DNA of 64,000 nucleotides from an uncultured Calditrichaceae bacterium (GTDB taxonomy: Bacteria > Calditrichota > Calditrichia > RBG-13-44-9), in the NCBI GenBank assembly GCA_964495805.1, contig CAZBWV010000051.1, positions 8,973 through 72,972 on the forward strand. Reading direction: 5' to 3'. This document shows positions 25,004 to 47,318 of this stretch, one piece after another. Every line of letters begins with the position of its first letter. The first letter of the stretch is position 1. A model generated the notes under the pieces. That model worked only from the letters and a program-made list of their open reading frames with translations. It searched no databases and was not told where the DNA came from. Made by a program: the position numbers and the translations under genes.

Positions 25004-25026
25004 GTTCGCGAAATATTTTTCCCTGA

Positions 25027-27618: not shown

Positions 27619-27704
27619 TCCGTACTCCTGAATCGATGCCCGTGGTTTTTTCCACGAATATACGTTCTTTTGTTTTACGGAGGGAACCTTTTTCTTGACC
27701 GGGC

Positions 27705-28892: not shown

Positions 28893-29009
28893 GCTTCCTC
28901 CTTGTTACCAATTCATGGTTGGTTCAAATTCATGATTTGCTGTGCCTCAAACAATTTCTGTGCTGAGAACTTTTGTGCGAGTATATTTCTCTCAATTGAG
29001 AATTCAAGG

Positions 29010-30443
29010 TCAACTGCCAATTTCCGTTTCATCCTCCCGAATTTTGGGTGCCATAGTTATTCCGGTGAAACCGAAAATGATGAGTATGATGACGGAAAGG
29101 TAATTCATGAAAGCGTAAGGTAAATATTCGAACGGAGAGACCCCGATGGTTCCGGTAACATACACACCGGCCATGCTCCAGGGAATGAGCGGAACGATGA
29201 TGGCGCCACTCTCTTCAATGATGCGAGAGAGATTTTTAGCGGCTAATTTTTTCCGGCGGTAAATGGGAGCCAGCAGTTCTCCCGGTACAATCATGGAAAG
29301 GTAGGAGCTACCGGTTACCAGGGCGGTGAGAATAGCTGCGCCCACGGTGGTGAGGACGATAGACCATACCTTTCGGGTAAACCGGGTGATTTTGTTGAAG
29401 ATGACTTCCAGCATTCCGGAACTTTGCATGATGCCACTGAAGCTAAAGGCGGTAAACGCCACCAACTGAACTTCCATCATGCTCATCATCCCGCCGCGGG
29501 AGATAAGGCGATCCACCACCGCCACTCCGGTTTGGGATTGATATCCGGTGTTCATAGCCCGGGCAACTTCCACCACGCTGGCACCCTGAAAAATCACTGC
29601 CAGCGCTCCGGCCACAAAGGAGGAAATGAGCATGCCGGGCAGCACCGGAAGTTTGCGAAAAGCAAAGTAAAAAACGATAATCATGGGAATGAGCAACCAT
29701 AAATTAAAACGGAAGTGCTGTTCCAGAGTCATCAGAATGGTTTGCATGGTTTCCGATTCCACGTGGGTGGCGGAATAGTGAAGTCCGATGATAAAATAGA
29801 TAAGAAGTCCTATCAGCCAGGCAGGAATAGCTGAGTACATCATGTGTTTGATGTGATCGAACAGGTTGGAGCCAGCGGCCACCGGTGCCAGATTGGTGAC
29901 GTCTGAGAAGGGAGACATTTTGTCTCCGAAATAGGCGCCGGCTACAATGGCACCGGCCGCCTGGGGTAACGGTACACCCAGGGCGGTGGCAATTCCAATG
30001 AACGCCACCCCCAGCGTTCCGATGGTTCCCCAGGAAGTACCTGTGGCCAGCGAAGTCAGACTGCACACAAAACTGGCAGTAACCAGAAAAAAACGCGGGG
30101 AGATGAGTTTGAGTCCGTAGTAAATCACCATGGGAATAGTACCGCTGATGATCCAGCTTCCGACCAGAATGCCGACCGCCAGCATAATCAGCACCGCCGG
30201 AAGTGCTTTGTGAATGCTTTCCACAATTCCCCGCTCCAGTACCTTCCAGGGGAAACGAAGTGCCACTGCAATGATGCCGGTAAGAAACGCAGCGGTTACC
30301 AGCAGTACCTGCGCTTTAATGTGGTACATCCCATAGCCTACGATGAGCAGAATCATCATGGCCAGAATGGGAGTCAGGGCGATCCAGAGACCGGGTTGGA
30401 TCGGTTTGCTCGATTCGGTACCCTGATTTTCCGATTTCGCCAT
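29010..30443 (-). CDS. NhaC-family Na+/H+ antiporter-like membrane transporter
   Basis: Multi-TM protein with NhaC-like blocks (GTIPMVIYYGLKLISP, GTSWGTIGTLGVAFIGIA, AGAYFGDKMSPFSDVTNLAPVAAG). Length 477 aa. Confidence 0.65.
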   Translation of the reverse strand: MAKSENQGTESSKPIQPGLWIALTPILAMMILLIVGYGMYHIKAQVLLVTAAFLTGIIAVALRFPWKVLERGIVESIHKALPAVLIMLAVGILVGSWIISGTIPMVIYYGLKLISPRFFLVTASFVCSLTSLATGTSWGTIGTLGVAFIGIATALGVPLPQAAGAIVAGAYFGDKMSPFSDVTNLAPVAAGSNLFDHIKHMMYSAIPAWLIGLLIYFIIGLHYSATHVESETMQTILMTLEQHFRFNLWLLIPMIIVFYFAFRKLPVLPGMLISSFVAGALAVIFQGASVVEVARAMNTGYQSQTGVAVVDRLISRGGMMSMMEVQLVAFTAFSFSGIMQSSGMLEVIFNKITRFTRKVWSIVLTTVGAAILTALVTGSSYLSMIVPGELLAPIYRRKKLAAKNLSRIIEESGAIIVPLIPWSMAGVYVTGTIGVSPFEYLPYAFMNYLSVIILIIFGFTGITMAPKIREDETEIGS

Positions 30444-30446
30444 ATT

Positions 30447-32018
30447 CTATTTCTCCTGCAATGATTGGGAAAGGATTGGGATCAGCTTGACCGAAAGCGG
30501 TTGCGGAAGACGCCGCACCGGGTAAAAATTGCTCTCCTGAAGAAATTCCGCAAAACGGTACTTACGACCGTTCCGTTGTTGGGCAATACTGTATGTGGAT
30601 TGGGGTTCCAGAATGAGCGGAAGAAGGTTTGCCGCTGGCTGATTGAGCGGAATCAGAATATCCTCTTTCGAGATGGTTACCTGCCCGGAAATGAATTCAC
30701 CGTCCACCATTAGAGCGGGTTTGTCCTCTTCCTGACGCGGGGTAATATGCCGGATGAAAAATTGTTCCACGGTGGCAAGGATCGGTGTTTCTACCCGGTA
30801 CATTCGGATGCGATGGCGGTTCAGCAACTGGATAAGCCGTTTCCGGGTACCGGGAATCAGATACGCCCGGGGCCGTTTTACACTTTTTTTAATTTGGACG
30901 AGCGGATAGAAATTGTCCAGCTCCCGAATTTCGTGATGCCAGGTGTACAGGTTAAAAACAGGGAAAGGGAGGGTGGGGTGTGCCGGATCGGGGAAGTAAT
31001 CCATCTGGATGTGAACGTAATCGGATTGGGTGGCGAAAGTGAGTAATTTTTCCCGCGCCCGGGTTACGGTGGTGAGAATCTGCCCGGTGTGGTCGCTCAT
31101 GGTGTGCAAAAACGCCAGGAGCGCAGCATGTTGCCCGAGTGTGCGCCGTTCAAGCCGGGTGGTTAAATCTCCGTAACGTTTTCCCTCAATAATGAACGAA
31201 AGGGTATTGTAGATACCCATGCTCTGTCGGCCATCGTTGATGTTGGTAGTGCTGAAGCGCAATCGCTGACCCTCGAATGGGCTGCCCACCACGTAACGGT
31301 GGAAAGTAAAACCGGATTGCTGGATTCGTTTACCGGTTTCCGGAATCAGCTCCCGACCCAGCCTGATGAGTGTGCTGTCGATATTCAGGTTGGTCACCGT
31401 GCCCATCATTTCTTCGGCATCTTTCACATAACCGTGTTCCACCCAGTTTTTTTTGATGGCGTTGTACTCGTGAACATCCAGCGTGACCTCCGGCATCCAA
31501 TCCAGAAACAATTGATGCAATGCCTGAGCTTCCGGTTCGCTTAAAATTACGTGATTCCGGTTTAAATCCATATTGTGAGCATTGCGTCGTTTACCGGCTT
31601 CGGCACCGTCGGGATTCACCTGAGGCACCAGAATCACATCCAGTGCGTTAAGCAGCGATTTTTCGGTGGTCAGAAGGTCTTTGGTGAGCAGCAAAGCCGC
31701 TTCCTTGCCAGATGGTTCGTTGCCATGTTGCTGGCAGTAGATGAGTATCACCGGTTTACGATCCCGCTGGCTGGCAAAATGCGGATCGGTGGTGAAAAAC
31801 AGAGCGGGAATTTCTCGCCCCTGTACCGAATGACCGATAATTTGCAGATTAACAATTTCGTTCTCCCGGGCCAGTTCCTTCAAATATTGCATCATCTCCG
31901 CATGGGAAGTAAGGCTCCGGAACCGGTGCTGTTCCGGAGGGGAAGTGAGCTGAGCGGCGAAAATACCCGAAACGATGGTCAAATGGAGCGCCAGCAGAAA
32001 GGAAAGTAAGCGCTTCAT
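30447..32018 (-). CDS. secreted M14-family zinc carboxypeptidase
   Basis: Signal peptide. HGNEPSG (M14 HxxE zinc ligands), and a second zinc-His region (TLDVHEY). Confidence 0.75.
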   Translation of the reverse strand: MKRLLSFLLALHLTIVSGIFAAQLTSPPEQHRFRSLTSHAEMMQYLKELARENEIVNLQIIGHSVQGREIPALFFTTDPHFASQRDRKPVILIYCQQHGNEPSGKEAALLLTKDLLTTEKSLLNALDVILVPQVNPDGAEAGKRRNAHNMDLNRNHVILSEPEAQALHQLFLDWMPEVTLDVHEYNAIKKNWVEHGYVKDAEEMMGTVTNLNIDSTLIRLGRELIPETGKRIQQSGFTFHRYVVGSPFEGQRLRFSTTNINDGRQSMGIYNTLSFIIEGKRYGDLTTRLERRTLGQHAALLAFLHTMSDHTGQILTTVTRAREKLLTFATQSDYVHIQMDYFPDPAHPTLPFPVFNLYTWHHEIRELDNFYPLVQIKKSVKRPRAYLIPGTRKRLIQLLNRHRIRMYRVETPILATVEQFFIRHITPRQEEDKPALMVDGEFISGQVTISKEDILIPLNQPAANLLPLILEPQSTYSIAQQRNGRKYRFAEFLQESNFYPVRRLPQPLSVKLIPILSQSLQEK

Positions 32019-32199
32019 GAATAGTTCTCCTGAGCTTTCGTCAAACGGTTGGTTTCCTTTTCAACCGCATATTAGGTTGAATGGTGGAACCATTTAAGTG
32101 CTTGTAGTTTCAGGTACAAATTGAAACGAAACAGATGTTTCATATTTGAACACAATTCAATCTTTTCCGTTGGAAGTCCCTGACTCCTGTTTGTCCGGA

Positions 32200-33069
32200 T
32201 TAGCTTTTACCTGCGTGTTCTTTGCGAACGTGATCCAGTGATTTAATGGTTTTCAGTGTTTTATGCTTCAGATCTTTACCAATCTGCCCCACCATCCCGT
32301 AAATCACCGTCAGTACAGGCATAACCGAGTTGGAAATGCTCACTGTTTCCACCGCCACCTGAATAATGTAATTGCTGAACTGAATGATGTGGCTGGTGGC
32401 TTTGTCGGTGAAAGAAATCACCGGAATATGCTTTTCCTGAGCGTAAGCGGCTGCCTGAATGGTTGCTTCCGAATAGGGCGGGAACGAGAATGCAATGATT
32501 GCGTCGTTTTTGTCCAGGTGAATAATTTGTTCCGAAAAGCTAAGCGCTCCGGCGGAAAAGGCAGCGGCACGAATCGAAACCCGATTGAGCAGGTAAGCCG
32601 TAAGCTGTGAGAGGTAGTAGGAAATACCCAGGCCCATGGTGTACACATGCCGGGCTCCTTCGATGACCTGCAGGATTTCGCGCAACTGATGAGGGTCGTT
32701 CAGCTCCAGGGTTCGCTGAATGTTTTCCACCGTTTCCTGAGCAATAAATTCCAGCGTGTTTTCGATGTCCTCAAAATTTTCCAGATGGGATTTGTAGCGG
32801 TAAATGGGGTCCAGGCTGTTGCGAATGGATTTGAGAAATTCTGCCTTCAATTCGGCAAAACCTTCGTAACCCAGTGCCTGAGCCAATCGCACGATGGTGG
32901 ATTTACTGGTGTGCAGCTCCTCCTCCAGCTCCCGGACAGAACATAAGGCGAATTTTTTGGGGTTTTCCACTATGTAATTGGCAATGATTTTTTGAGATCG
33001 GGTGAGCTGGGGAATTCGGCTGCGAATTCGTTTCTTTAAGTCCTCGAGATCGATTTTAATGTTCTGCAT
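32200..33069 (-). CDS. RpiR/MurR-family transcriptional regulator (HTH + SIS domain)
   Basis: N-terminal HTH_6 (LTRSQKIIANYIVENPKKFALCSVRELEEELHTSKSTIVRLAQALGYEGFAELK), followed by a SIS sugar-phosphate-binding domain. Confidence 0.85.
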   Translation of the reverse strand: MQNIKIDLEDLKKRIRSRIPQLTRSQKIIANYIVENPKKFALCSVRELEEELHTSKSTIVRLAQALGYEGFAELKAEFLKSIRNSLDPIYRYKSHLENFEDIENTLEFIAQETVENIQRTLELNDPHQLREILQVIEGARHVYTMGLGISYYLSQLTAYLLNRVSIRAAAFSAGALSFSEQIIHLDKNDAIIAFSFPPYSEATIQAAAYAQEKHIPVISFTDKATSHIIQFSNYIIQVAVETVSISNSVMPVLTVIYGMVGQIGKDLKHKTLKTIKSLDHVRKEHAGKS

Positions 33070-33194
33070 GGTTTTTTTTGAAGTGGAATTTAAAAACTAT
33101 TTTTTTCGAATAAAATTTGTTTTCCTCAAAGTTGTCTCCAGTCCTTGAGGGAACCGCCAGGGGAAAAGTGCTTTCTCCCTGACGGTTGCTGGTC

Positions 33195-34214
33195 TTAGAA
33201 TTGGATTCCCACGGTAAAGTGCTGCACATTGTTGAAAATGCCGAAATCGGCATAGGCGAAATCGATGACCACGCGGGTGCGTGCCGAAAGGGGCAAACGG
33301 AGTCCTGCTCCGGCTGTCAGCCCTTCCTCATCGGTATTGCCGCGATATCCGCCGCGCAGGAAAAACATCTCGTTATAAGCAAACTCCATCCCGAAGTTGT
33401 AGTGTTCCGGATTGTCGTTGGGATGCATGAGCTCGGCGATGGCGGTAAGTCGGGTTTTGCTGCTCTGCATCAAGGATTCCGCGCCGCCAATGATGTCCGA
33501 AGCGATGGAGATGCGCAGATTGGTAGGCAGCGGCCAGGCTTCGGTGCTCAGTTTGGCTTCTGTATCGGGATTGAGCTTGCTGTCCGGCATCTGGTCGTAG
33601 CCACGGATCAGGTCGCGCCCGTCCAGCTTCATATCCGTACCGAAGTTGGTCATAATCATCCCCAACTTAATTCCTCGGATGCCGGTGTTGAGCATCAACC
33701 CCAGGTCGATGGCATAACCGGTGGCTTTTTCGTTCCAGATTTGCTGGTGAATCATTTTGGCGGTAATGCCAAAGTGCACAAAATTGGTCATAGCCCGGGC
33801 ATAGGTCACCCCCAGAGCAAAATCCTGTGCGGCAAAGGTAAGTCCGGTTCCTTTGGGCTGGTCGATGGTGGTTTGCTCCATCTCATCCATGGTCAGGTAC
33901 TTAACCTGAATGCCAATGGCGTTGGTTCCGCCCAGCGGCACCGCTGCTCCCACAAAACCGGTGGAAATATCGGCAATCCAGCGGGTGTGGGTAAAGGTAA
34001 CCTCGTAAAAGTCCAGCTGGGCGATGCCGGCGGGATTCCAGTACAGTGCGCTGGCATCGTTGGCAATGGCGCCAAAACAGCCACCCATTCCCAGCGCGCG
34101 GGCACCTACCTCAATCTTTAAAAATTGTGCTGCGGTGGTACCCACTTTATTGAAGGCCAGTCCCTGAAAAACAAGAAAAAGGATGAGTGTAATGATGATT
34201 GTCAATCGTTTCAT
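33195..34214 (-). CDS. FadL/PorV/PorP-like outer-membrane beta-barrel protein (cassette copy 2; paralog of 9751-10776)
   Basis: Signal peptide. Motif EVGARALGMGGCFGAIANDASALYWNPAGIAQL shared with copy 1. Length 339 aa. C-terminal ...FTVGIQF with a terminal Phe. Confidence 0.6.
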   Translation of the reverse strand: MKRLTIIITLILFLVFQGLAFNKVGTTAAQFLKIEVGARALGMGGCFGAIANDASALYWNPAGIAQLDFYEVTFTHTRWIADISTGFVGAAVPLGGTNAIGIQVKYLTMDEMEQTTIDQPKGTGLTFAAQDFALGVTYARAMTNFVHFGITAKMIHQQIWNEKATGYAIDLGLMLNTGIRGIKLGMIMTNFGTDMKLDGRDLIRGYDQMPDSKLNPDTEAKLSTEAWPLPTNLRISIASDIIGGAESLMQSSKTRLTAIAELMHPNDNPEHYNFGMEFAYNEMFFLRGGYRGNTDEEGLTAGAGLRLPLSARTRVVIDFAYADFGIFNNVQHFTVGIQF

Positions 34215-34230
34215 TCGTTTGCTCCCATTA

Positions 34231-37053
34231 CTATTTAATTAGAGCGAATTTGCCAACATGTTGTTTTCCGTCCGGAGTTTTAACCACGTACACGTACACC
34301 CCGAAGGCCAGGTCCTGTTTGGACCGGGAAGTCAGATTCCAATCCAGAGTGCCGGAATCGCTATCGTGCTCCAGAACGTTCACCAGTTCCCCCCGCAGTG
34401 TGTAGATGTAAATGGTGCATCTGGGAGGCAGGTACATGAATTCAATTCGACGCACGTTTTTAGCGCGCTCCCATGCAGCATTGACCACATACGGATTGGG
34501 AACCACCCGAATCTCGCTCAGCTCGGACTCGGAAACGCTGCGGTACGAGTAACCGTTAAACCGCAGAGTGTACACGTCCGAGGGGGTATGGGTTCGCCTG
34601 GTGGTGACGTGAACCAGTTGCCCCTCGATGGGTGGTTTATTCAAACTGTCCTGAGGAGCATTCTTGACGGTAATTTGATAGGGCACTTCATCGATAATGT
34701 TCAGGGAGTACGTTTCGCCAATCTCCACATCCGGGTAGGGAACGTTGACAATATAAATGGGTTCGTCCTCGTCGTATTCCAGGTCACCGTCATCTAACAC
34801 AATGGCAGTTACTTCCTGATTGTAGGTCACATTCCACACCTCGAAAGGAACCGTTTCGGTAACCGTCACAGTGGGCGAGAGTCGGGTTCCCACTTTGGAA
34901 CCCCGGGCGGTAAAGCGAATTTCGTAGTCGGAAGTCTTCGCATCGAAATTGCCCCATTTGGAAATTCCTTCCACGTACCAGGACCCGGTGGTGTCGGTGT
35001 GTTCGGCACCCCACACGTTGCGACCGAATTCGTCGGTAATGGAAACAATACCGCCATTTTCCTCATCCCCGTTTACCCGCACGCTAAAGCCGTCCACCAC
35101 AGGCATCTCGTCGGTGTTGATGGGATAGTTGGTTAACTTCACTTCGCCGGTGGTGGCGTCTGACACATCAAAATGGACGCCGGGACTATCCGGAAAGGTG
35201 ATGCGGTACACGTGGTCGGTCAAAGCATCGGGATCGACGATGCGAATATCCAGACTGCCCTTTCCGTGTCCTTCGGTGTGCTCGTACGAGGCTTCCGGTG
35301 GTACAAATCCCAGTGGTCTGGGCTGGGGCATCACCTTCACAAAATTATCTTCCGTTTCCTTGGAACCTTTGGATGACTCGAAAGCCTGGATATTGTTGGC
35401 AGGATCGCCCTTGTCGTAGGCAGTGATGGTATAGGTGTAGATGATCCCGTTTTTCACATCGGTATCCACAAAGCTGTGCCGGATACCGGAATCGTTGCCC
35501 AGGTAGAAGTTCGCATTCAACGGATCCAGGCCCATGATGTTGTCTTTCAAATCGAAGGTTGCAATGGGCAGGTAGCCCACCAATCCTCCGCTGCCATCGT
35601 AAATGGGTTCGCCCCAGGTCTGGCCGTCATCTGTGCTCCGGTAAATTTTGTAGCCCTCAAAATCGTACTCGCCGGTAAAGGGATCGGCCACATGTTCCGG
35701 ATCGTCCGTCCAGTACAGAGTAACTTTCATATCTCCGGGAACGGCATACAGTTTTGGGGGTTTGGGTCCGCTGGGACCCTGGTAATTCTTCAGGTACATG
35801 CTTTTGGCCATTTCGATGTTGGCTTTAAAATCGTCCACGTTTTCGCCGCCACACACCACAATCACAGATTTAACCGATTCCCCCGGTGCCAGATCGAACG
35901 GCCCGGTGGCTACAATGTTTACCCAGTCGAACCCCATGGCTCCCTGGGTAAGGGTGTAGTCGTCCATGCGTACATCGCTGCCATGGAAAAAGTCGTTGCG
36001 CATGGGGGCGATGTTGGGATCGTTGGGATTGCTGGTGATAATGGGGAATAGCTGTTCGTCGGAGGTGGGGCCGGTATCCAGAAAGTAATGCGTGTCGGTA
36101 ATTCCCATATCTTTGGGGGTTTTCAGAAAGGCTACCCCGAACACCCCGCGCTCGAACTCATTGGGGTCGGTAATCTCCGGATCCAGCTCGTAAATCACGT
36201 CCCAGGGACCGGGATTCAGGCCGGTGCTGTAAGTAAAGTAAGCTTCGTCCTCGTATTCCCCGTAGTCGATGTCCATGTAGTAGCCCCACCAGCAGCTATC
36301 CAGGGTGGAATCCGTGGTGTTGGTGATGGTGACTTCGTAGAAGTGAAAATCGGCTGCATAGGGACGTCCGTATTCAAAATTTTGCACACGCAACTGGATT
36401 CCCAGCGGTGGGTGCTGAAGGTTGGTGTGGTCATCTAACATGCTAAAGGTAACGCGGTCGGCGGAAAATTCGCCCGGTACCGGTTGCCCGTAATTGGGGG
36501 ATTGGGGATTAATGTCCAGACGAAAATCGCCCGGCCAGTGGTGTTCGCCGGGTGTCTCCACCCAATTTCCCTGGTCGTCGAAGTAGCCGGTCGGCCAGGT
36601 TTCAGGAACATCGCTTACCGCAAGATGAGGATAGCCCTGATGTTTTAGCTCCTCCGGCTGATCCTTGGCATGGTAGTAACCCCAACTCCCCGGCACAGGA
36701 CTCCAGTCCTCCTGCCGGTAAGCGGTATATCCGTCGATGACATTGCCTTTACGGGCGAACAGAAAGGAGAAGTCGTCCACAGCATTGTCGTCCGAGGCAA
36801 TGGCCCCTTTGCTCTTCGGCCACATGAAGTCAAAAAATTCGGTTTGAAAATACGAATCGGTAATCTGGCCGAAGTTCATATAGCAATTCAGCAGTTCTCC
36901 CTTGTTCATAATGGCGTAACCGATATCCGGACCCTGAGCCCCTGGTTTCAGGATTGTGCCGGAGCCCTCATCCTTCTCCCGATCCGGATGTTCGGCTGCC
37001 ACCAGCGAGGAAATCAGCCAGATGATAATCAGAATTAAAACACTTCGTTTCAC
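34231..37053 (-). CDS. large cell-surface protein with variant extended T9SS-like C-terminal domain (cassette copy 2; paralog of 6455-9682)
   Basis: Signal peptide. Conserved blocks shared with copy 1 (YDFEGYKIYRSTDDG, VDTDVKNG). C-terminus VVPNPYVVNAAWER...CTIYIYTLRGELVNVLEH...GVYVYVVKTPDGKQHVGKFALIK. Confidence 0.75.
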   Translation of the reverse strand: MKRSVLILIIIWLISSLVAAEHPDREKDEGSGTILKPGAQGPDIGYAIMNKGELLNCYMNFGQITDSYFQTEFFDFMWPKSKGAIASDDNAVDDFSFLFARKGNVIDGYTAYRQEDWSPVPGSWGYYHAKDQPEELKHQGYPHLAVSDVPETWPTGYFDDQGNWVETPGEHHWPGDFRLDINPQSPNYGQPVPGEFSADRVTFSMLDDHTNLQHPPLGIQLRVQNFEYGRPYAADFHFYEVTITNTTDSTLDSCWWGYYMDIDYGEYEDEAYFTYSTGLNPGPWDVIYELDPEITDPNEFERGVFGVAFLKTPKDMGITDTHYFLDTGPTSDEQLFPIITSNPNDPNIAPMRNDFFHGSDVRMDDYTLTQGAMGFDWVNIVATGPFDLAPGESVKSVIVVCGGENVDDFKANIEMAKSMYLKNYQGPSGPKPPKLYAVPGDMKVTLYWTDDPEHVADPFTGEYDFEGYKIYRSTDDGQTWGEPIYDGSGGLVGYLPIATFDLKDNIMGLDPLNANFYLGNDSGIRHSFVDTDVKNGIIYTYTITAYDKGDPANNIQAFESSKGSKETEDNFVKVMPQPRPLGFVPPEASYEHTEGHGKGSLDIRIVDPDALTDHVYRITFPDSPGVHFDVSDATTGEVKLTNYPINTDEMPVVDGFSVRVNGDEENGGIVSITDEFGRNVWGAEHTDTTGSWYVEGISKWGNFDAKTSDYEIRFTARGSKVGTRLSPTVTVTETVPFEVWNVTYNQEVTAIVLDDGDLEYDEDEPIYIVNVPYPDVEIGETYSLNIIDEVPYQITVKNAPQDSLNKPPIEGQLVHVTTRRTHTPSDVYTLRFNGYSYRSVSESELSEIRVVPNPYVVNAAWERAKNVRRIEFMYLPPRCTIYIYTLRGELVNVLEHDSDSGTLDWNLTSRSKQDLAFGVYVYVVKTPDGKQHVGKFALIK

Positions 37054-37108
37054 AGGTTGTCTCCTTTACCAATCTATTAACTTCATTTAATTGGGCATTC
37101 GGGTTCGG

Positions 37109-39904
37109 TTAAAAAAGGAATCGAATTCCCACAGAGGTTAATCGGGGAATTCCCACATTTCCCGGATTGTGAATGCGATCCTGACTGTAGGAACTGGTGG
37201 GACCGGCATCCCAGGCTTTTCCGGTACGAGACCACACGTAATTCTGGTTCAATCGGTTAAACAGATTTTTTACCACCAGGAATCCCACCACATCAACGTT
37301 TTCCCAGATGCCGATGCGCTTTTGCACCCGCAGGTCCACCTGAGCAAACCAGGGCTTACGACCGGTGTTGCGTTCCAGAAACACATTTTCCGTTTGTTCT
37401 TCCACGAAGGGGGTGTATGGTAAACCGCTGGCCACCTGCACCAGGAGGTTGAAATGCCAGCGGGCAAATGGTCGGAAGCCCATCCATTCGGTGCCGTAAT
37501 TTCGAGGGGTTTTCACGATGGCGTTTAGCGAAATCGTGTGTCGCCGGTCGAAGTCCAGGTAGTATTCCCGGTTGGGGCGCAGGGTCACATCCACACCGCG
37601 GTAATAATTGTACCCGTCCGAAGCGGACGACTCATTCCCGCGGGCAACGGAGAGTGAGTAATTAAACATGGCCGTAAAAAATCGTCCGGTCTTTCGTTCC
37701 AGCGTAAAATCGATCCCTTTCACACTGGCGTAGTCGCTGTTGTCGAACACGGTAAAATTGTACGGGAAAACCAGCCGGTAAGTGCTTCCGGCCAGGTAGG
37801 TGATATCTTTGAAGTAAGCGTTTACATCAAAAGCCCAATTTTGCGCCAGTTGAAGTTTGATGCCAAATTCGTATTGAACCGTTTTCTGGCTTTTGATTTT
37901 GGGATTTCCCAGCAGCGGACTACCACCGGTGGTAACATCGTGATGTTTGTACATATTGTAGAAACTGGGAACTTCGTAGTAATGTCCATAAGAGGTGTAA
38001 AACACCAGATGCTGGGTGACCGGATAAGCAATACCCAGCCGGGGACTGATGTGTTGCTGAGCGGGAGCCGGTTCTTCCGGCGCGGGAATCCATTGACCGG
38101 TGGAATCCAGATAGCCGGGGGTGTAAATGTCCTCCCACATGGTTGCTCGGGGATCGAAATATTCGTAGCGCAGCCCGAAATTGAGCACAAAGCGATCATA
38201 CTCCATTTTGTCCTGCGCGTAAGCGGCAAATTCCACCGGATATCGCTCAAAAATTTCGATGTAGTGGGCCGAACCGGGCCACGGGTAGCGCCATCGGTCG
38301 CGCCAGACATCGTGGTATTTGTACAGCAAGCCGGTTTTTATCTCGTGCCGCTTGCTCACCTGGCTCACCAGGTCAAAACGCACGGAATAGGTGGTTACCC
38401 GATTGTCCTCGTAGCGTCCCCGGTCTCCCTGAACGTAAAATCCGTCCGAATTACTGGAACTGCGTTCCCAGTCCGAGTACAGATTGAGCATGGAATCCAG
38501 CCTGGCCGCATCGTTGTAAATTTCCGGGGGTAAATCACTGATTTTAAATTTCCGGTTCGGATTAAAGCGATAATAGCGGTGGTAATAGCGAGAGATGCGC
38601 AAATTGTAGAAGGTTTTGGCACTGATGGTGTGGATGAATTCCACCATGTAACGATCGATGATGCTCTGGCGATCTTCCAGTGCCCAGGGACGGTACTTCC
38701 AGCGGTGGCTGTACGGTTTGTAATAGCGACGGCTTTGCTGATAGGAAAATTTCATTTTAAACCAGCGATGCTGGTAATTGAGTTTGGCGTTCAATTCCCG
38801 CCGGGCATCGTACCCGAAAGGTAAATGACTGTAATAGTTGGAATAGCGTCCCGCTACAAAAAAGGAAAGATTTTTGATGAACGGAATTGGGCCGGATAGG
38901 TTTCCGGTGAACAATCCGTACAACGGGGAACCAAACAGGGTGGGTAGTTTACCGACCGTGGGAATGGATTCGAATTTGGGTACTTTATACTGGGACACAC
39001 CGATACTATCGATGGGGGTAGGGGTGGTGGAGAAAGAGGTGTCGTCCACGCGATACCAGCGCAATGCGTCGCGGTACTCGTTTTCTTTTCCCGGAGGCAC
39101 GTCCACCAGGTCCGAGGAGAGCATCCAGTCCACTTTGCGGTAGGGAGAATCCTCCAGCCAGTGGGATTCGTATTCCAGGCGTCCGCTATATTTGGTAAAC
39201 GATCCGTCGCGGGTGACGATGTTAATCACACCGGACATGGCCTGGCCGTATTCGGCGCCATAAGCACCGGTAAGCATTTGTAATTCCTGAATCACATATT
39301 TATCCAGCATAATGCTGGCGCCCCCGCTTTTGTAGAAGGGATCCTGCACCAGCACCCCGTCGATCATGTAAGCGATTTCGCCGGCCCGACCACCGCGTAA
39401 ATGCAGGTCACCGGATTCGTCCCGAACCACACCGGCCTGAGCTGCTACCGCTTCGTCAAAATCCTGAATGGGCATATCGGTGAACGTGGTAAAATCCATG
39501 ATCACCGTTTTATTGGTCTCGTCCTTGTTAATCATGGGACGTTTGGCCACCACTTCCACGGCTTCGCCTTCGATGGCCTGAACCTTGAGCCGGAAGTTGA
39601 CCTCAGTGGCCAGGTCGGTGCGTACCGGTACACCGGTTTTCACCATCTTCTGGTACCCGATCATGGAAGCTTCCACATCGTAGGTTCCCGGGGGAATATT
39701 CAGGATGATGAAGTATCCGTCCATATCCGTAGCGGCACCTAAGTTCGTTCCCTTCAGAACCACATTCACCCCCGGCAGGGGTTCGCCGGTGTCCGCGTCC
39801 TTCACCACTCCGCGAATTTTACCGGTGGTACCGGCCAGTCCGAAGCTATACAGGAGAAAAAACAGTACGACGAAAGATAAGGTGAGCGGTTTTTTGCGGT
39901 ACAT
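37109..39904 (-). CDS. SusC/RagA-like TonB-dependent receptor (cassette copy 2; paralog of 3735-6440)
   Basis: Signal peptide. N-terminal GKIRGVVKDADTGEPLPGVNVVLKGTNLGAATDMDGYFII CarboxypepD_reg-like domain. Plug. 931 aa ending ...SVGIRFLF. Confidence 0.85.
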   Translation of the reverse strand: MYRKKPLTLSFVVLFFLLYSFGLAGTTGKIRGVVKDADTGEPLPGVNVVLKGTNLGAATDMDGYFIILNIPPGTYDVEASMIGYQKMVKTGVPVRTDLATEVNFRLKVQAIEGEAVEVVAKRPMINKDETNKTVIMDFTTFTDMPIQDFDEAVAAQAGVVRDESGDLHLRGGRAGEIAYMIDGVLVQDPFYKSGGASIMLDKYVIQELQMLTGAYGAEYGQAMSGVINIVTRDGSFTKYSGRLEYESHWLEDSPYRKVDWMLSSDLVDVPPGKENEYRDALRWYRVDDTSFSTTPTPIDSIGVSQYKVPKFESIPTVGKLPTLFGSPLYGLFTGNLSGPIPFIKNLSFFVAGRYSNYYSHLPFGYDARRELNAKLNYQHRWFKMKFSYQQSRRYYKPYSHRWKYRPWALEDRQSIIDRYMVEFIHTISAKTFYNLRISRYYHRYYRFNPNRKFKISDLPPEIYNDAARLDSMLNLYSDWERSSSNSDGFYVQGDRGRYEDNRVTTYSVRFDLVSQVSKRHEIKTGLLYKYHDVWRDRWRYPWPGSAHYIEIFERYPVEFAAYAQDKMEYDRFVLNFGLRYEYFDPRATMWEDIYTPGYLDSTGQWIPAPEEPAPAQQHISPRLGIAYPVTQHLVFYTSYGHYYEVPSFYNMYKHHDVTTGGSPLLGNPKIKSQKTVQYEFGIKLQLAQNWAFDVNAYFKDITYLAGSTYRLVFPYNFTVFDNSDYASVKGIDFTLERKTGRFFTAMFNYSLSVARGNESSASDGYNYYRGVDVTLRPNREYYLDFDRRHTISLNAIVKTPRNYGTEWMGFRPFARWHFNLLVQVASGLPYTPFVEEQTENVFLERNTGRKPWFAQVDLRVQKRIGIWENVDVVGFLVVKNLFNRLNQNYVWSRTGKAWDAGPTSSYSQDRIHNPGNVGIPRLTSVGIRFLF

Positions 39905-39997
39905 AAAATGGACTCCTGCAATAAATTCGCTTTTTTGTTCAATTAAATCAGAGAAATCGGGGAACCCCTTTGCAAAAGGAGTTCCCCGACGGTAGCA

Positions 39998-41719
39998 CTA
40001 TTTCACCAGCAGCATTTTTCGAGTTGCGGTAAAATCTCCCGCTTTCAGGGTGTAGAAGTAAGTTCCCGAAGGCATCTGGCTGGCATCCCATACCACCGCT
40101 TTAAATCCGGCGGTCATGCGCTGGTTTACCAGAGTGGTGATTTCCTGTCCCAGTGCGTTGTAGATGGTAAGCGTCACGTGAGCGTCCCGGGTCAGATCGA
40201 AGCGGATGGTGGTGGTGGGGTTGAAAGGATTGGGGTAATTCTGATGCAGGTTGAATTTTTCCGGCATGATTCGGGTGAGCGGTGGTTGAATGCCCACAAT
40301 GCTTTTGACGGTGTCGGTGGGGACTCCCATGTAGTAAAGCTGGTCGGTGTGGGGATCGCACTCTTTGCGGTACACAATATGCAATTTGTCCGTAGCGATA
40401 CGTGCCATGCCGTTGGGGGATTGTCCGACCCAGTGATCGAGCACGGAAACCGGTCCCTGCCAGGTGTCGCCGTTATCTTCGGAGAAGACGATGAACATGT
40501 TGAAATTAAACAGCTTGGGGTCTCCATGGGAGCCGGTGGTATCCACCACATCGGAGTAGCAGTAGTACAGCGTACCGTCCGGTCCGATGGCCGGATCGTT
40601 CATGGGATGACGTTCCAGATCGGGTGGTAGGTCGCCCCAGGCAGCCAGACCGTTTACCAGCAATTGCGGTAGCACAAATTCGTTGATGCTCCAGGTAGTT
40701 CCGTCAAAGCGCAGGTCGTAAGCGCGGTAAGGCTGGTCTCCGGGAACACCGCTGGAGGTGTGCGCCAGAGTAGTGTCGAAGCCCAGACCGAAGATGTGCC
40801 AATTTCCGGCATTATCCAGAATGGGGTTGCTGAAGTTGCGGTACACGTCGCTGTTCTGGAAGGTGAGCGATTCGCTTCCCGGAATGCCAGAGATAGCGCT
40901 CCAGGTTTGTCCCCCATCGCTGGAATGGGAGTAGATGAGGCGCCACATATCATCTTTTTGAATTTTGGCCAGTCCTACAGCCATTAATTCATTGTTGGGG
41001 CCGCAGGTAACTCCCAGACCGGAAGAGGAAAGGTCATGCACCCAGTTGGGGGCACCACTGTCTGCGGGAACCGCCGATGCGACCACGTGCGGTGCACTCC
41101 AGTTGAATCCACCGTCCGTGGAGATGTAGCAATACAGGCCTTCGCCCGGAGCAGCATTGTGATAGGAGCCAACTGCCATTAAATTGGGATTGTCCGGTGC
41201 CACAGAAATGGAGTTGTACCGGCTGTACAGCACCGTGTCCGCTGAACCGGAGTTGTCGATCATGATGTTGTCGAATAAACCGCCTCCCCATCCCAATACG
41301 TCGTAGGCCAGCACGGGACGGCTATCCTGATCCGGGCCCTCCGGATTGCGGTCGGCATACACGATGAGCGGAGTGGTGGTGGTTCCCCAAACCGAAGCGT
41401 AACGGGCGTTCATTTCCGTACCCACTCCCTGATTGATGTTTTCGTAGATCGTCCAGGTCTGACCCCCGTCGGTGGATACCGCTGCGGTAATTCGGCGCGG
41501 ATTTGGCTGACCACTATAGTAACGGTACCAGGCAACAATGAGATTGCCGGTAGTAGGTTCGCAGAAAATCTGCGATTGATGGCCCCGGTAAATACCGTTG
41601 TACACCGCCGAGTCGATATACGTGGGGGTGACAATCGGAACCGGGCCCTGTGCCAGCACGGTGGAACCCATGGCGAATAAAAGAACAAATAAAATGAGGC
41701 TGGTAACTTTGGTATGCAT
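39998..41719 (-). CDS. T9SS-secreted BNR/Asp-box repeat (sialidase-like beta-propeller) protein with type-A CTD
   Basis: Signal peptide. Three Asp-box SxDxGxTW motifs (STDGGQTW, SSDGGQTW, SEDNGDTW). C-terminus NYPNPFNPTTTIRF...GTYFYTLKAGDFTATRKMLLVK. Confidence 0.7.
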   Translation of the reverse strand: MHTKVTSLILFVLLFAMGSTVLAQGPVPIVTPTYIDSAVYNGIYRGHQSQIFCEPTTGNLIVAWYRYYSGQPNPRRITAAVSTDGGQTWTIYENINQGVGTEMNARYASVWGTTTTPLIVYADRNPEGPDQDSRPVLAYDVLGWGGGLFDNIMIDNSGSADTVLYSRYNSISVAPDNPNLMAVGSYHNAAPGEGLYCYISTDGGFNWSAPHVVASAVPADSGAPNWVHDLSSSGLGVTCGPNNELMAVGLAKIQKDDMWRLIYSHSSDGGQTWSAISGIPGSESLTFQNSDVYRNFSNPILDNAGNWHIFGLGFDTTLAHTSSGVPGDQPYRAYDLRFDGTTWSINEFVLPQLLVNGLAAWGDLPPDLERHPMNDPAIGPDGTLYYCYSDVVDTTGSHGDPKLFNFNMFIVFSEDNGDTWQGPVSVLDHWVGQSPNGMARIATDKLHIVYRKECDPHTDQLYYMGVPTDTVKSIVGIQPPLTRIMPEKFNLHQNYPNPFNPTTTIRFDLTRDAHVTLTIYNALGQEITTLVNQRMTAGFKAVVWDASQMPSGTYFYTLKAGDFTATRKMLLVK

Positions 41720-42440: not shown

Positions 42441-43712
42441 GTGCAAATGGAAGTGGTTGTTTTTGTGGTGATGACGCTCTCTTTTATTCTGGCGGCCATG
42501 TGGTTGAAATGGCCCATTGGTGTTTCGCTGATGGCTGCCTCCGTCATTGGTGCACTGGTGGGGGGAGTGGGTTTTCCCCTGCGTCACCTGGTGGAAGGAA
42601 CTTTCGCATATCTCGACCCCATTTTAATTATTGCCACCGCCATGGTGTTCATGGAGGTGCTTCGACGCTCGGGTTCGCTGGAAAATCTGAGTCGGCTTAT
42701 TCTGCTGAAGCTTCATCGCTATCCCCTCTGGCTGATTGTGTCCATCACGCTGTTTATCATGTTTCCCGGAATGATTACCGGTCTTTCCACTGCCACGGTA
42801 CTGACCACGGGTGCCATTGTAGCACCTGCGCTCATTCGGCTGGAAATCCCCCGGCTCAAAGTGGCTGCCATGATTGCCATGAGCGCCATTTACGGGATGA
42901 TTGCTCCGCCCATAAATGTTCCGGCTATGATTATTGGCGGCGGTGTGGACATGCCTTACATCGGTTTCGACCTTCCCTTAATTGTGGCAACATTTCCGCT
43001 GGCTATTGTGGTCAATCTGGCGCTGGGTTACTCCCATGTTCGTCGGGCAAACATGGAACGGGTACTTGCCGCGCTTCGGAAGGAAGACCAACAGGCGGGA
43101 ACGGTGTGGTTGCATTTCCCGCTGGTTCTGGTTATTCTGCTACTGGTGGGCATTCGGGTGTTTCCGGGAATTTTCCCCAATCCGGGAATTCCGCTTATTT
43201 TTCTCATTGGAAGCGGGGTAGGGGTTTTTACCGGAAAGAAATTTCGTTTCTTCTCGGTGGCCACCGATTCGCTTCACCAGGGATTGCCAGTAATCGGGAT
43301 TTTGTTGGGCATCGGAATGTTCATTCAGATTATGACCCTGACCGGTGTGCGCGGTTTGCTGGTGATGGCCAGTCTGAGTTTGCCCTCCCTATGGCGATAC
43401 CTGGGCATTTCCACCATGATGCCACTTTTCGGAGCCATTTCCGCTTACGGGTCGGCTTCGGTTTTAGGAGTGCCGTTTCTGCTGGCGTTTCTGGGTAAGA
43501 ACGAAATCATCGTCGGGTCAGCGCTTTCGCTCATCTCCGGTTTAGGAGATTTAATGCCTCCTACTGCTCTGGCGGGTATTTTTGCCGCTCAGGTGGTGGG
43601 CGAAAAAAATTATTTCAAAGTGCTGAAGTACACCATCCTGCCAGCCGTCCTTACCGCTGTGTGGGGTATTGGAATGATTGTTTTTGCCAATGCGCTGGCC
43701 AGAATCCTGTAA
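42441..43712 (+). CDS. polytopic membrane permease, DctM-like (TRAP large-permease / ion-transporter superfamily); no DctP or DctQ partner in window
   Basis: About 12 TM segments in 423 aa. DctM-like region RRSGSLENLSRLILLKL. AGGAGG Shine-Dalgarno 7 nt before the GTG at 42441; alternative ATG at 42447. Confidence 0.4.
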   Translation: MQMEVVVFVVMTLSFILAAMWLKWPIGVSLMAASVIGALVGGVGFPLRHLVEGTFAYLDPILIIATAMVFMEVLRRSGSLENLSRLILLKLHRYPLWLIVSITLFIMFPGMITGLSTATVLTTGAIVAPALIRLEIPRLKVAAMIAMSAIYGMIAPPINVPAMIIGGGVDMPYIGFDLPLIVATFPLAIVVNLALGYSHVRRANMERVLAALRKEDQQAGTVWLHFPLVLVILLLVGIRVFPGIFPNPGIPLIFLIGSGVGVFTGKKFRFFSVATDSLHQGLPVIGILLGIGMFIQIMTLTGVRGLLVMASLSLPSLWRYLGISTMMPLFGAISAYGSASVLGVPFLLAFLGKNEIIVGSALSLISGLGDLMPPTALAGIFAAQVVGEKNYFKVLKYTILPAVLTAVWGIGMIVFANALARIL

Positions 43713-43743
43713 TCTGACTTTAACAAATAATCCGGGTGCAACC

Positions 43744-43890
43744 ATGTTGACAATGATTTATCAGGGAATTCTTCTTTTTTTTATTGTACTATTTGTGCGG
43801 GCGGTGTTTCGGGAGAAGAAAAAAAGCATGCAACTCACCGCGGCTGTGGCTTGCATTCCGTTTATCCTGCGGCTGCTCATGATAAAGTGA
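43744..43890 (+). CDS. small hydrophobic protein (2 predicted TM helices), uncertain
   Basis: 49-aa ORF (MLTMIYQGILLFFIVLFVRAVFREKKKSMQLTAAVACIPFILRLLMIK) lying between the permease and the AstE/AspA-like gene. No other support. Confidence 0.2.
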   Translation: MLTMIYQGILLFFIVLFVRAVFREKKKSMQLTAAVACIPFILRLLMIK

Positions 43891-43953
43891 AACAATTCGG
43901 CATTCTCCGCCCTTTTATGTGGTAAAAAATGACCCTGTGAAAGATATCCCGGA

Positions 43954-45123: not shown

Positions 45124-45238
45124 CCGGAGCTGCCCGGATTGGGATTGTGTGCAAGGTGTGGAAAGGAATTTTCGTTCCGGCTGAAGTGTGGTTTGGAAAT
45201 CACTATTGACGGATGAATAAAAAAACCGGAGGTTTGGA

Positions 45239-45793
45239 ATGAGACAGCTTATGGTGTCTTTGCTGATGTTGATGGTGCTGAGCGCTATGGCGGCAGAAAA
45301 AACTGCTTCTGAATTTCACGCCAGCGATCCGGTGCTAATTACCAGCGCCGGGCAGAGCTCCGATGTGCTGATGGTGAAACTGTTAGCAGAACGTGCGGGT
45401 ATTGCCTATCAGTTCGATAAAATGGCGCAACCGGACATGCTGAAAGAGGTGAAAACTCTGATTCTGGTAGCCGGTGGCAGCAGCAAAGGGTTGGGCGCTG
45501 CCCGCATCGATAAGGAACAGGAGTTGAATCGGGTGAAACAATTAGTGGCCAGGGCAGAGCAGGATCGTATTCCCATCGTGGCCATTCATGTAGGGGGCAA
45601 AGCACGGCGTGGAAAGTTGTCCGATTATTTTAGCGACTATGTTGCCCGCCATGCCAATCTGCTGATTGTGGTAAAAGAAGGGGATTACGACGGGTTCTTT
45701 TCCCGAATTGCTCAGGAAAAAAAGATCCCCATTCATTTGCCTGATGAATTGCAGGATGTTCAGCAAGAATTGAAACAGGTGTTTCAGAAATAG
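45239..45793 (+). CDS. secreted hypothetical protein
   Basis: Signal peptide (MRQLMVSLLMLMVLSAMAAEK). 184 aa. No recognised motifs. Confidence 0.4.
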   Translation: MRQLMVSLLMLMVLSAMAAEKTASEFHASDPVLITSAGQSSDVLMVKLLAERAGIAYQFDKMAQPDMLKEVKTLILVAGGSSKGLGAARIDKEQELNRVKQLVARAEQDRIPIVAIHVGGKARRGKLSDYFSDYVARHANLLIVVKEGDYDGFFSRIAQEKKIPIHLPDELQDVQQELKQVFQK

Positions 45794-45806
45794 AGTGTGA
45801 GGCAAG

Positions 45807-47282: not shown

Positions 47283-47318
47283 TAAAAAAAGAATGGAGTA
47301 AGCAGGAAAGGGCTGAGT

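Follow-up and report, generated by a model that had tools for sequence, protein, structure and literature searches.

Cassette B consists of three minus-strand open reading frames, matching the ORF list exactly, that fill positions 33195-39904 of the window, by which we mean the whole stretch of 64,000 nt analyzed here. They encode a TonB-dependent receptor (TBDR), a large protein and a barrel. A paralogous cassette, A, lies on the plus strand. The features of both are as follows.

33152-33187, minus strand: hairpin just 3′ of the barrel stop, closing the three-gene unit (read from the sequence)
33195-34214, minus strand: barrel of cassette B, 339 aa, PorV/PorQ-family outer-membrane barrel
34231-37053, minus strand: large protein of cassette B, 940 aa, all-beta, predicted surface protein
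37109-39904, minus strand: TBDR of cassette B, 931 aa, TonB-dependent receptor, paralogue at 3735-6440
39958-39988, minus strand: hairpin, then a T-rich tract, in the spacer that separates the BNR gene from the TBDR gene (read from the sequence)
3735-6440, plus strand: TBDR of cassette A, 901 aa (Pfam/NCBIfam, BLASTP)
6449-9682, plus strand: large protein of cassette A, 1077 aa (Pfam/NCBIfam, BLASTP)
9751-10776, plus strand: barrel of cassette A, 341 aa (NF033709, 245.7 bits)

Within the window the gaps between the TBDR and large-protein genes are 8 and 55 nt. The hairpin with its T-rich tract upstream of TBDR B, where a consensus scan made no call, suggests that the trio may have its own transcription start. 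The hairpin behind the barrel gene was rejected as a canonical intrinsic terminator, as no T-run follows it.

An earlier note on this DNA had described the cassette as duplicated and inverted with its gene order kept, and pairwise BLASTP alignment confirmed that all three pairs are paralogous. The barrels are 47% identical across 322 aa (E 3e-104) and the large proteins 31% identical over the C-terminal 611 aa (E 5e-70). For the TBDRs, identity is 51% in the N-terminal 213 aa and 26% in the barrel region (E 1e-60 and 3e-58). The motifs quoted in that note were recovered in the large protein (EYDFEGYKIYRST / EYDFEGYRIYRST and FVDTDVKNG / YVDTDVKNG) and in the barrel (VGTTAAQFLKIEVGARALGMGG / VGTTAAPFLEIGVGARAIGMGG). 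Its dating of the duplication as ancient also held, as A and B are only 29-47% identical, whereas each copy has closer relatives in other genomes: orthologues of copy A (L058, L073) at ∼62-73% identity and homologues of copy B at 56-89%. The duplication is older than the split of several lineages.

The receptor, the large protein and the barrel

TBDR B comprises, in this order, a signal peptide, a CarboxypepD_reg-like N-terminal domain, a TonB-box-like sequence, a plug and a beta-barrel. Pfam matches were found to TonB_dep_Rec_b-barrel (89.1 bits, cutoff 27), CarbopepD_reg_2 (75 bits) and Plug (25.6 bits, cutoff 23.9), along with a partial match to OMP_b-brl_4. The TonB-box-like sequences (GEAVEVVAKRP / GEAIEVTAERP), which were judged by eye, sit between the N-terminal domain and the plug, and the protein carries the plug, barrel domain and TonB box of a TonB-dependent receptor. 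Membership of the SusC/RagA family was rejected: TIGR04056 gave 62.7 bits for B and 60.3 bits for A against a cutoff of 368, and matched the N-terminal region only. The TBDR has a SusC-like architecture and lies outside the SusC family. Neither TBDR gene is preceded by a riboswitch, which speaks against transport of a cofactor.

Large protein B has a type I signal peptide without a lipobox, as do 42 of the 46 members of its family. Apart from the C-terminus it has no match in Pfam or NCBIfam, and every homologue is annotated as "hypothetical". The AF2 model (pLDDT 87.4, pTM 0.76) is nearly all beta, with a beta-supersandwich, an FN3 domain and more beta-sandwiches arranged in series ahead of a C-terminal domain (CTD) of a diverged type IX secretion (T9SS) kind, and Foldseek matched it to multi-FN3 ectodomains. 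Three of these domains were delimited.

35779-36921, minus strand: N-terminal beta-supersandwich, residues ∼45-425, variable (A-B identity 25%)
35374-35766, minus strand: FN3-like domain, residues ∼430-560, conserved (A-B identity 47%)
34234-34518, minus strand: diverged T9SS CTD, residues 846-940 (A-B identity 51%)

The FN3-like domain bears the conserved blocks DFEGYKIYRS and VDTDVKNG, and the middle domains are variable (A-B identity 21%). Such conservation of the FN3-like domain and the CTD, set against a variable supersandwich and middle, fits an anchor-plus-adaptor design. In the large protein no site for ligand binding was found.

The CTD is modeled with seven beta strands and contains the motifs VVPNPY, GVYVYVV and, at its end, GKFALIK. 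Aligned by hhalign with canonical type-A CTDs from the same genomes it scored 97.2% (E 4e-11); both homology to genuine CTDs and the seven-stranded beta-sandwich are found at the extreme C-terminus. The domain falls below the T9SS-tail thresholds, with no match to Por_Secre_tail (Pfam) or TIGR04183; the type-B models CHU_C / TIGR04131 were not passed either, CHU_C giving 19.5 bits (cutoff 27), and a type-A CTD HMM built from the window missed it at E 1e-3. Among named families it comes closest to PorZ and PorU, whose CTDs are retained. The large protein was rejected as a member of either family: it reached 24.9 of 260 bits for PorZ and, in copy A only, 14.8 of 420 bits for PorU, in both cases through the CTD only, and it has neither beta-propellers in its model nor a C25 peptidase domain. 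It was also rejected as a SusD/RagB protein, having no SusD Pfam match, an all-beta model and no lipobox.

Both barrels score above the cutoff of 90 bits for NF033709 (PorV_fam), with 212.7 bits for B and 245.7 bits for A. For barrel B (AF2 model, pLDDT 86.2) the top Foldseek PDB matches were PorV in the SprA translocon, 8gl6_F (E 1.6e-15, TM 0.69) and 6h3i_F, with FadL and BamG ranking after PorV. Orthology with PorV, PorQ or PorV2 was rejected for both barrels, as the respective scores and cutoffs in bits were 74.4/250 (NF033710), 105.0/220 (NF033711) and 94.9/325 (NF052325) for B, and 89.4/250, 92.9/220 and 120.5/325 for A. A PorP/SprF-type carrier was rejected as well, the family matches being restricted to PorV, UPF0164 and FadL models; in Pfam the barrel weakly matches Toluene_X.

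Gene neighborhoods and the link to T9SS

Annotation of the window bears out the neighbors previously assigned to cassette B, namely an RpiR regulator, M14 peptidases, iadA and a BNR-repeat protein.

22468-33069, minus strand: peptide-catabolism locus downstream of cassette B
25027-27618: second M14 peptidase
27705-28892: iadA, isoaspartyl dipeptidase (TIGR01975 498 bits, cutoff 331)
30447-32018: M14 peptidase
32200-33069: RpiR/MurR-family regulator
39998-41719, minus strand: BNR-repeat protein with a T9SS type-A tail, directly 5′ of TBDR B
1879-3357, plus strand: T9SS type-A cargo protein directly 5′ of TBDR A

The downstream locus also holds an NhaC-family transporter, a PLP enzyme and a T9SS cargo protein; NhaC-type and DctM-like carriers, GGT and a racemase were recorded near copy B, and LacI, GH130, a GH2 mannosidase and an ABC importer near copy A. 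The tail of the BNR protein matches Por_Secre_tail / TIGR04183 (41.8 bits, cutoff 23), its BNR_2 match being weak, and the protein is likely a locus-specific surface cargo. A BNR+CTD gene likewise lies 5′ of B-type cassettes at L001 and L085. The cargo encoded ahead of TBDR A has only the CTD in common with the BNR protein.

Type-A CTD genes were a recurrent feature of related loci. One lies directly 5′ of the TBDR in 26 of 54 loci and within 3.5 kb of the trio in 30 of 34; their density is 1.94 per 10 kb within this distance (<=3.5 kb) and 0.10 farther out, a ∼19-fold difference. The many Por_Secre_tail proteins imply that these genomes probably encode a T9SS. The PorV/PorQ identity of the barrel, the cryptic CTD and the flanking T9SS cargo genes all go beyond the earlier note, and together they tie the module to T9SS.

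Reuse of the cassette as a module for different substrates had been suggested from the window, and it is seen again in 80 related loci, which contain CBM20/alpha-amylase, GH53, GH94, mannan enzymes and M14/M16 peptidases; the census of neighbors also includes ABC sugar-binding proteins and LacI. A strict polysaccharide utilization locus (PUL) was rejected, as no SusD-family match was found among the window proteins scanned with Pfam. The cassette is PUL-like in layout alone.

Conservation and co-divergence of the trio

The TBDR gene is immediately 5′ of the large-protein gene in 64 of 70 evaluable loci, and the barrel gene immediately 3′ in 65 of 68. In ∼65 of 70 related loci the three genes adjoin one another on one strand. 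Calditrichota, Ignavibacteriota, KSB1, Marinimicrobia, Zixibacteria and WOR-3 are among the sources of these loci. Species-representative genomes yielded at least 590 loci of the module, and a profile search with the large protein returned 2662 clusters (50% identity) at E<=1e-30. Several paralogous cassettes per genome are found in the window, at L050 and as pairs of locus tags. Pairs of large protein and barrel without an adjacent TBDR also exist (L087, L021, L052), so the link to the TBDR is frequent and not obligatory. A description of the three-gene module was not found in the literature; it is a widespread, undescribed module that relatives of the Bacteroidota reuse in loci for different nutrients.

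The proposed covariation of the three components was recovered by several measures. Their divergences are correlated (Mantel r 0.90/0.79/0.74, with 0 of 2000 permutations as high), the nearest-neighbor locus is identical between components in 37-38 of 58 cases, and assignment to A or B type agrees among components in 52 of 64 loci. The strongest covariation is that of TBDR and large protein (r 0.90), for which the partial r is 0.50-0.74 with the barrel controlled. CTD-specific covariation with the barrel was absent after controlling for TBDR distance (partial r 0.02-0.09). Part of the covariation is accounted for by the common ancestry of genes that are linked. Across several FCB-group phyla, the trio behaves as one unit in inheritance, duplication and divergence.

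A proposed capture model, its alternatives and related systems

We lean modestly toward reading cassette B as a three-gene operon and as an outer-membrane unit for nutrient capture and import, built partly of T9SS parts. A similarly slight preference goes to the mechanism in which the T9SS-exported large protein, kept on its own PorV-like carrier, is the SusD-like capture partner of the TBDR. The large protein would pass the inner membrane via Sec and then the outer membrane via the T9SS translocon, after which the PorV-like barrel of the cassette would take up its CTD and the protein would stay attached and uncleaved. By analogy, PorU-PorV, PorZ-PorQ and SprB-SprF may serve as models for carrier binding, and there is precedent for carrier-anchored T9SS cargo (PMC9143113, PMC12618676, PMC10994853, PMC12365241). 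A one-to-one protein anchor would replace the lipid anchor of SusD. Positioned beside the TBDR, the large protein could capture, on its variable supersandwich and middle domains, oligomers freed by the neighboring T9SS-secreted enzymes or binders, and would hand them to the TBDR for TonB-driven import. Judging from the genes nearby, the substrate of copy A may be mannan oligosaccharides (LacI, GH130, GH2 mannosidase, ABC importer) and that of copy B peptides, possibly with atypical linkages (IadA, the M14 peptidases, NhaC-type/DctM-like carriers, GGT, racemase).

Large protein and barrel might instead form a barrel-anchored adhesin or binding protein, or an S-layer-like coat, with the TBDR merely co-regulated and no hand-off; we consider this unlikely. 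The pairs that have no adjoining TBDR, a multi-FN3/Ig architecture like that of S-layer proteins and adhesins (Foldseek) and the SprB-SprF precedent (PMC9143113) would suit such a role, but the TBDR is directly 5′ in most evaluable loci, closely spaced in the window, and its correlation with the large protein persists when the barrel is controlled. It is more doubtful still that the two proteins serve their own locus as a T9SS pair for attachment or processing, comparable to PorU-PorV or PorZ-PorQ, which sorts or attaches the adjacent type-A cargo and binds no nutrient. Although the top named matches of the CTD are PorZ and PorU, the barrel is in the PorV/PorQ family and type-A cargo genes are enriched beside the trio, the PorZ/PorU likeness is limited to the CTD, and many divergent TBDR-tied paralogues per genome are unexpected for a general sorting machine.

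Two further readings seem very improbable. The TBDR could act as an exporter, a direction proposed for Myxococcus xanthus Oar, and send out a large protein that the barrel then holds; a TBDT is needed for protein secretion in one case (PMC6434023), and the CarboxypepD_reg N-terminus and partial OMP_b-brl_4 match would agree, yet the large protein has a T9SS-type CTD in genomes encoding many T9SS cargos, its pairing with the barrel occurs without a TBDR, and the loci around it serve catabolism and encode inner-membrane importers. Nor do we give much credence to a T9SS-independent scheme in which the barrel lets small or hydrophobic substrates diffuse through it, as FadL-like channels do, and the large protein is a periplasmic or secreted binder. 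FadL-family structures are the second-best fold matches and Toluene_X matches weakly, but the E-value of PorV is better than that of FadL by some five orders of magnitude, the NF033709 score is more than twice its cutoff, the CTD is homologous to T9SS tails and the neighboring substrates are polar glycans and peptides.

The capture model extends to a broader proposal, which is tentative and in our estimate falls a little short of an even chance. FCB phyla other than the Bacteroidota may possess a third class of pair linking a T9SS signal with its carrier, namely a diverged type-A-like CTD and a dedicated PorV paralogue, which in Ignavibacteriota would exist alongside SusCD. With it, these bacteria may mount a protein-anchored lid or capture subunit on a TBDR. 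This would amount to a T9SS-built "utilisome", a separate solution to the SusCD problem, and would account for many unexplained PorV/PorQ-family paralogues in these genomes. Outer-membrane polymer capture is known chiefly from SusCD of the Bacteroidota. Among the sister phyla of the Bacteroidota are Calditrichota, Ignavibacteriota, KSB1, Marinimicrobia and Zixibacteria, which are plentiful in sediments, in hot springs and in the deep ocean. If the capture model is true, T9SS serves to assemble nutrient importers in addition to its roles in secretion and gliding, and many orphan PorV/PorQ paralogues gain a role. The three genes would then be a marker that finds substrate-utilization loci where SusD-based PUL prediction yields little, and T9SS cargo prediction would need revising, because the tail of the large protein evades standard models.

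Compared with known systems, the module resembles PorU-PorV and PorZ-PorQ of Porphyromonas gingivalis in that a T9SS-exported CTD protein is predicted to sit on a PorV/PorQ-family barrel. It differs in being multi-copy, specific to substrate loci and TBDR-linked, with barrels below the PorV, PorQ and PorV2 equivalog cutoffs and a large protein similar to PorU (a C25 sortase) and PorZ (beta-propellers) in the CTD alone. In SprB-SprF and PG1035-PorP, which have type-B CTDs, the cargo gene likewise adjoins its own barrel gene, with several pairs per genome, and the barrel is carrier and surface anchor of its cargo (PMC9143113, PMC12618676). The carrier here, in contrast, is PorV/PorQ (FadL-like) and not PorP/SprF, the CTD is type-A-related (hhalign 97%), and the link is to a TBDR and not to gliding adhesins. 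A beta-rich surface accessory captures the ligand of the TBDT in BtuG-BtuB of Bacteroides and TbpB-TbpA of Neisseria. BtuG and TbpB are lipoproteins, and we know of no accessory of this type that is delivered by T9SS or anchored by a dedicated barrel.

With SusC/SusD (RagA/RagB) the module shares a TBDR with a CarboxypepD_reg-like N-terminal domain whose gene adjoins that of a surface partner, and many copies per genome, each lying in a locus for a particular substrate together with genes for surface enzymes, regulators and inner-membrane importers. Unlike SusC, the TBDR fails the SusC model (62.7 vs 368 bits), and whereas SusD is an alpha-helical lipoprotein of ∼550 aa, the partner here is ∼950-1100 aa, all-beta, with a signal peptide and a T9SS-type tail. 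The module also adds an obligatory third gene, the PorV-family barrel, and its flanking enzymes are T9SS cargos, not lipoproteins. A true SusD co-occurs with the module in one genome (L072). This genome belongs to Rosettibacter primus, a cultured carrier of the module.

A second copy of the cassette and its relatives

The span 33195-39904, which an earlier note had described as an inverted, second copy of a three-gene cassette, fits exactly to three minus-strand ORFs. They encode a TonB-dependent receptor (TBDR), a large protein and a PorV/PorQ-family barrel. This cassette (copy B, peptide locus) and its counterpart on the plus strand (copy A, mannan locus) are composed as follows:

37109-39904, minus strand: TBDR of copy B, 931 aa
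34231-37053, minus strand: large protein of copy B, 940 aa
33195-34214, minus strand: barrel of copy B, 339 aa
3735-6440, plus strand: TBDR of copy A
6449-9682, plus strand: large protein of copy A
9751-10776, plus strand: barrel of copy A

Pairwise BLASTP, the check proposed in the note, gave significant alignments for all three gene pairs and recovered every conserved motif quoted there in both copies. The TBDRs share 51% identity in the N-terminal 213 aa (E 1e-60) and 26% in the barrel part (E 3e-58), the large proteins 31% across 611 aa (E 5e-70), and the barrels 47% across 322 aa (E 3e-104). The nearest relatives are labelled Calditrichaeota. Copies A and B are each closer to relatives in other genomes than to each other; thus, the duplication is old, as had been suggested. 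Among 58 loci, the proteins closest to TBDR B and to large protein B come from outside this genome, whereas for barrel B the closest is its counterpart in copy A (47% identity). This may be due to sparse sampling of B-type cassettes or to constraint by a shared host partner, e.g., the translocon.

A degenerate-pattern scan using one genome per species yielded at least 590 loci with large-protein relatives, and 2662 relatives at E ≤ 1e-30 were retrieved when a profile was run against 1.84 billion cluster representatives. Going by record titles, the carriers belong to Calditrichia, Ignavibacteriota/Melioribacteraceae, KSB1, Neomarinimicrobiota, WOR-3, Stahlbacteria, Zixiibacteriota, Kryptonium and others, along with some bins under uncertain Bacteroidota labels, and include the cultured Rosettibacter primus (locus L072). 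For synteny counts 80 loci were kept. The TBDR gene lies immediately upstream on the same strand at 64 of the 70 loci evaluable for it, and the barrel gene immediately downstream of the large-protein gene at 65 of 68. These counts rule out chance adjacency of the three genes. Several genomes carry more than one cassette, seen as pairs or triplets of locus tags within single assemblies. The three genes move and duplicate together as one block. Two tandem cassettes, complete or near-complete, are found in a Neomarinimicrobiota locus (L050:3540-17727), and a Calditrichaeota MAG may be arranged likewise, judging from its locus tags GXO74_08200 and GXO74_08215.

The distance matrices of the three proteins were compared pairwise over 58 complete trios with 2000 permutations. 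Mantel r was 0.90 for TBDR and large protein, 0.79 for TBDR and barrel, and 0.74 for large protein and barrel, values not reached in any of the permutations. The nearest-neighbour locus was identical for two components in 37–38 of the 58 cases. At 52 of 64 loci all three genes were nearer to the same window copy, the exceptions being loci distant from both. The co-variation of the three components asserted in the note is thus borne out, and as covariation among linked genes it is partly shared history.

Identity of the three proteins

Pfam divides the TBDR into a CarboxypepD_reg-like domain at the N-terminus, the plug and the barrel, and a TonB-box-like GEAVEVVAKRP was seen by eye ahead of the plug. 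This domain layout is like that of SusC, but the protein scores 62.7 bits with the SusC/RagA family model, far below its cutoff of 368. An Rfam scan found no riboswitch before either TBDR gene or elsewhere in the window, and a role as cofactor transporter was rejected on that account.

Barrel B scored 212.7 bits against the PorV/PorQ family model NF033709 (cutoff 90) and stayed under the equivalog cutoffs of PorV, PorQ and PorV2. The closest structure to its AlphaFold model (pLDDT 86.2) is PorV as bound in the Flavobacterium SprA translocon (8gl6_F, E 1.6e-15, TM 0.69), followed by FadL and BamG. In another genome, the barrel P0225 (L086:3728-4759), encoded directly behind a 962-aa family member, carries the NCBI name [quoted passage not shown] despite its cassette position, which indicates that cassette barrels can be mis-called as housekeeping PorV.

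No Pfam domain was found in the large protein, and its homologues are all annotated as hypothetical. A type I signal peptide without lipobox is present in large protein B and in 42 of 46 family members. The predicted model is almost wholly beta (pLDDT 87.4, pTM 0.76), with an N-terminal supersandwich, an FN3-like domain that bears the DFEGYKIYRS and VDTDVKNG blocks, further sandwiches, and a seven-stranded domain at the C-terminus. As a type IX secretion (T9SS) tail this domain was missed by Pfam, TIGRFAM and a custom HMM of the type-A C-terminal domain (CTD), and was detected only via profile-profile comparison and structure. A CTD profile built from 48 loci matched a profile of 49 canonical type-A tails of the same loci (97.2% probability, E 4e-11); among named proteins, PorZ and PorU gave the best matches, with their C-terminal domains, and the motifs VVPNPY and GVYxY and a terminal K are present. 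The end of the large protein is, as predicted from these profiles and the model, a diverged T9SS C-terminal domain.

Between the window copies, the CTD (51% identity) and the barrel (47%) are the most conserved parts, and the supersandwich (25%) and middle domains (21%) of the large protein are variable. A CTD-specific co-evolution with the barrel was dropped as an explanation: in domain-wise distance matrices the partial correlation of the two, controlled for TBDR distance, was 0.02–0.09, which is neither support nor strong counter-evidence for a private CTD-barrel code. Both are simply conserved. A subgroup of large proteins of ∼1035 aa, mostly of Ignavibacteriota type (P0062, P0066, P0069, P0073, P0076, P0079, P0083, P0087, P0093, P0098, P0102; loci L012, L013, L014, L036), has a single CxxCH 3–10 residues past the predicted signal-peptide cleavage site. 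The motif, which is absent from both window copies, could be a haem-c attachment site.

Genomic surroundings and substrate context

Genes for proteins with a canonical T9SS type-A tail (type-A cargo) lie directly upstream of the TBDR gene at 26 of 54 loci and within 3.5 kb of the trio at 30 of the 34 loci with enough flank. Near the trio there are 1.94 such genes per 10 kb, farther off 0.10 per 10 kb. The two cargo genes of the window encode proteins with only their tails in common:

39998-41719: BNR protein, cargo of copy B
1879-3357: cargo protein of copy A

In a Pfam census of two genes on each side, LacI regulators, histidine kinases, SurA-like PPIases and alpha-amylase were found upstream of the trio, and ABC sugar-binding proteins and permeases, CBM20, GH94, GH53, alpha-amylase and M14/M16 peptidases downstream. 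Copy A is surrounded by LacI, an ABC importer, GH130 and a GH2 mannosidase. Around copy B we found an RpiR/MurR-type regulator, two M14 peptidases, an NhaC-family carrier (TIGR00931, 479 bits, cutoff 370) and an isoaspartyl dipeptidase (TIGR01975, 498 bits, cutoff 331), and farther away a DctM-like carrier, an AstE-like deacylase, gamma-glutamyltranspeptidase and Asp/Glu racemase. All neighbours that the note had listed for this copy (RpiR regulator, M14 peptidases, iadA and BNR protein) are therefore in place, and the mannan, amylase/CBM20 and peptidase contexts among neighbours agree with its suggestion that the cassette is reused across substrates. In other genomes, too, B-type cassettes are accompanied by the BNR cargo gene and by some of the peptide context.

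A conserved block encoding a DctM-like carrier, an AstE/AspA-like deacylase, DUF6305 and a T9SS cargo adjoins B-type cassettes in three genomes (window 42441-51782; L085; L086), with an additional 48-aa ORF after the carrier gene in L085 and L086. Gamma-glutamyltranspeptidase comes next in the window and in L085, and Asp/Glu racemase additionally in the window; the block may encode a pathway acting on gamma-linked peptides or on peptides with D-amino acids. At nine loci, including L072:70-3493, a SurA-like PPIase with two rotamase domains is encoded directly upstream of the TBDR. The sole Rfam match in the window, a tRNA-Phe (GAA) at 22311-22386, separates the mannan locus (end of GH2 at 22244) from the peptide locus (start 22468). 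Four ORFs of 370–491 aa without Pfam match (14286-15611, 45807-47282, 51790-52902, 53501-54667) lie in or beside the two nutrient loci, and a complete RND efflux operon (membrane-fusion protein, AcrB-family pump, outer-membrane factor; 55910-61811) is unrelated to the cassette.

Possible mode of action

No description of the cassette was found in the freely readable full-text literature (subscription journals being mostly outside this scope), nor does it figure in the genome papers of Caldithrix abyssi and Melioribacter roseus. In its gene layout and in being reused at different loci the cassette resembles SusCD, but its proteins fall outside SusC and SusD in membership tests. Type-B cargos of the T9SS are anchored on their own PorP/SprF-like carriers encoded by adjacent genes (PMC9143113, PMC12618676). 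The cassette is similar to such cargo-carrier pairs, but it has a PorV-family carrier, a type-A-like tail and a tie to a TBDR.

To the observed gene identities, synteny, co-divergence and context we add the following model. The large protein would be a substrate exported by the T9SS, and its diverged tail would be caught and kept by the cassette's own PorV paralogue. Such binding would form a protein anchor of one-to-one stoichiometry, which would explain why each cassette has its own barrel although barrel and tail are its most conserved parts. The variable supersandwich and middle domains would bind a locus-specific oligomer, which the large protein would pass to the TBDR, its tightest co-varying partner. 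We infer export by the T9SS, retention, oligomer binding and hand-off by analogy.

Large protein and barrel could instead form an independent, barrel-anchored binder or adhesin. In favour of this are pairs without an adjacent TBDR gene (L087, L021, L052); given the TBDR gene at 64 of 70 loci, we regard it as unlikely. At L087:4955-9023 (CP070762.1) a full-length family member (hhalign 100%, E 5e-149) and a PorV-family barrel have no TBDR upstream; on that side lies an M1 peptidase gene in divergent orientation, whose product has a T9SS tail. The minimal unit may be the pair of large protein and barrel rather than the trio. The PorZ and PorU matches of the tail also recall the attachment complex of PorU-PorV and PorZ-PorQ (PMC9143113, PMC12365241), and that the pair forms a local version of it is less probable still. 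We give hardly any credence to the TBDR being an Oar-like exporter (PMC6434023), or to the barrel, for which FadL ranks after PorV in structural matches, being a FadL-like channel.

The idea that the "SusC, SusD, SusE" operon of Melioribacter roseus (PMC3534657) is the trio was dropped, as a true SusD_RagB gene lies beside the cassette in Rosettibacter (L072). This gene is found two genes upstream, so that SusD and the cassette coexist in Ignavibacteriota.
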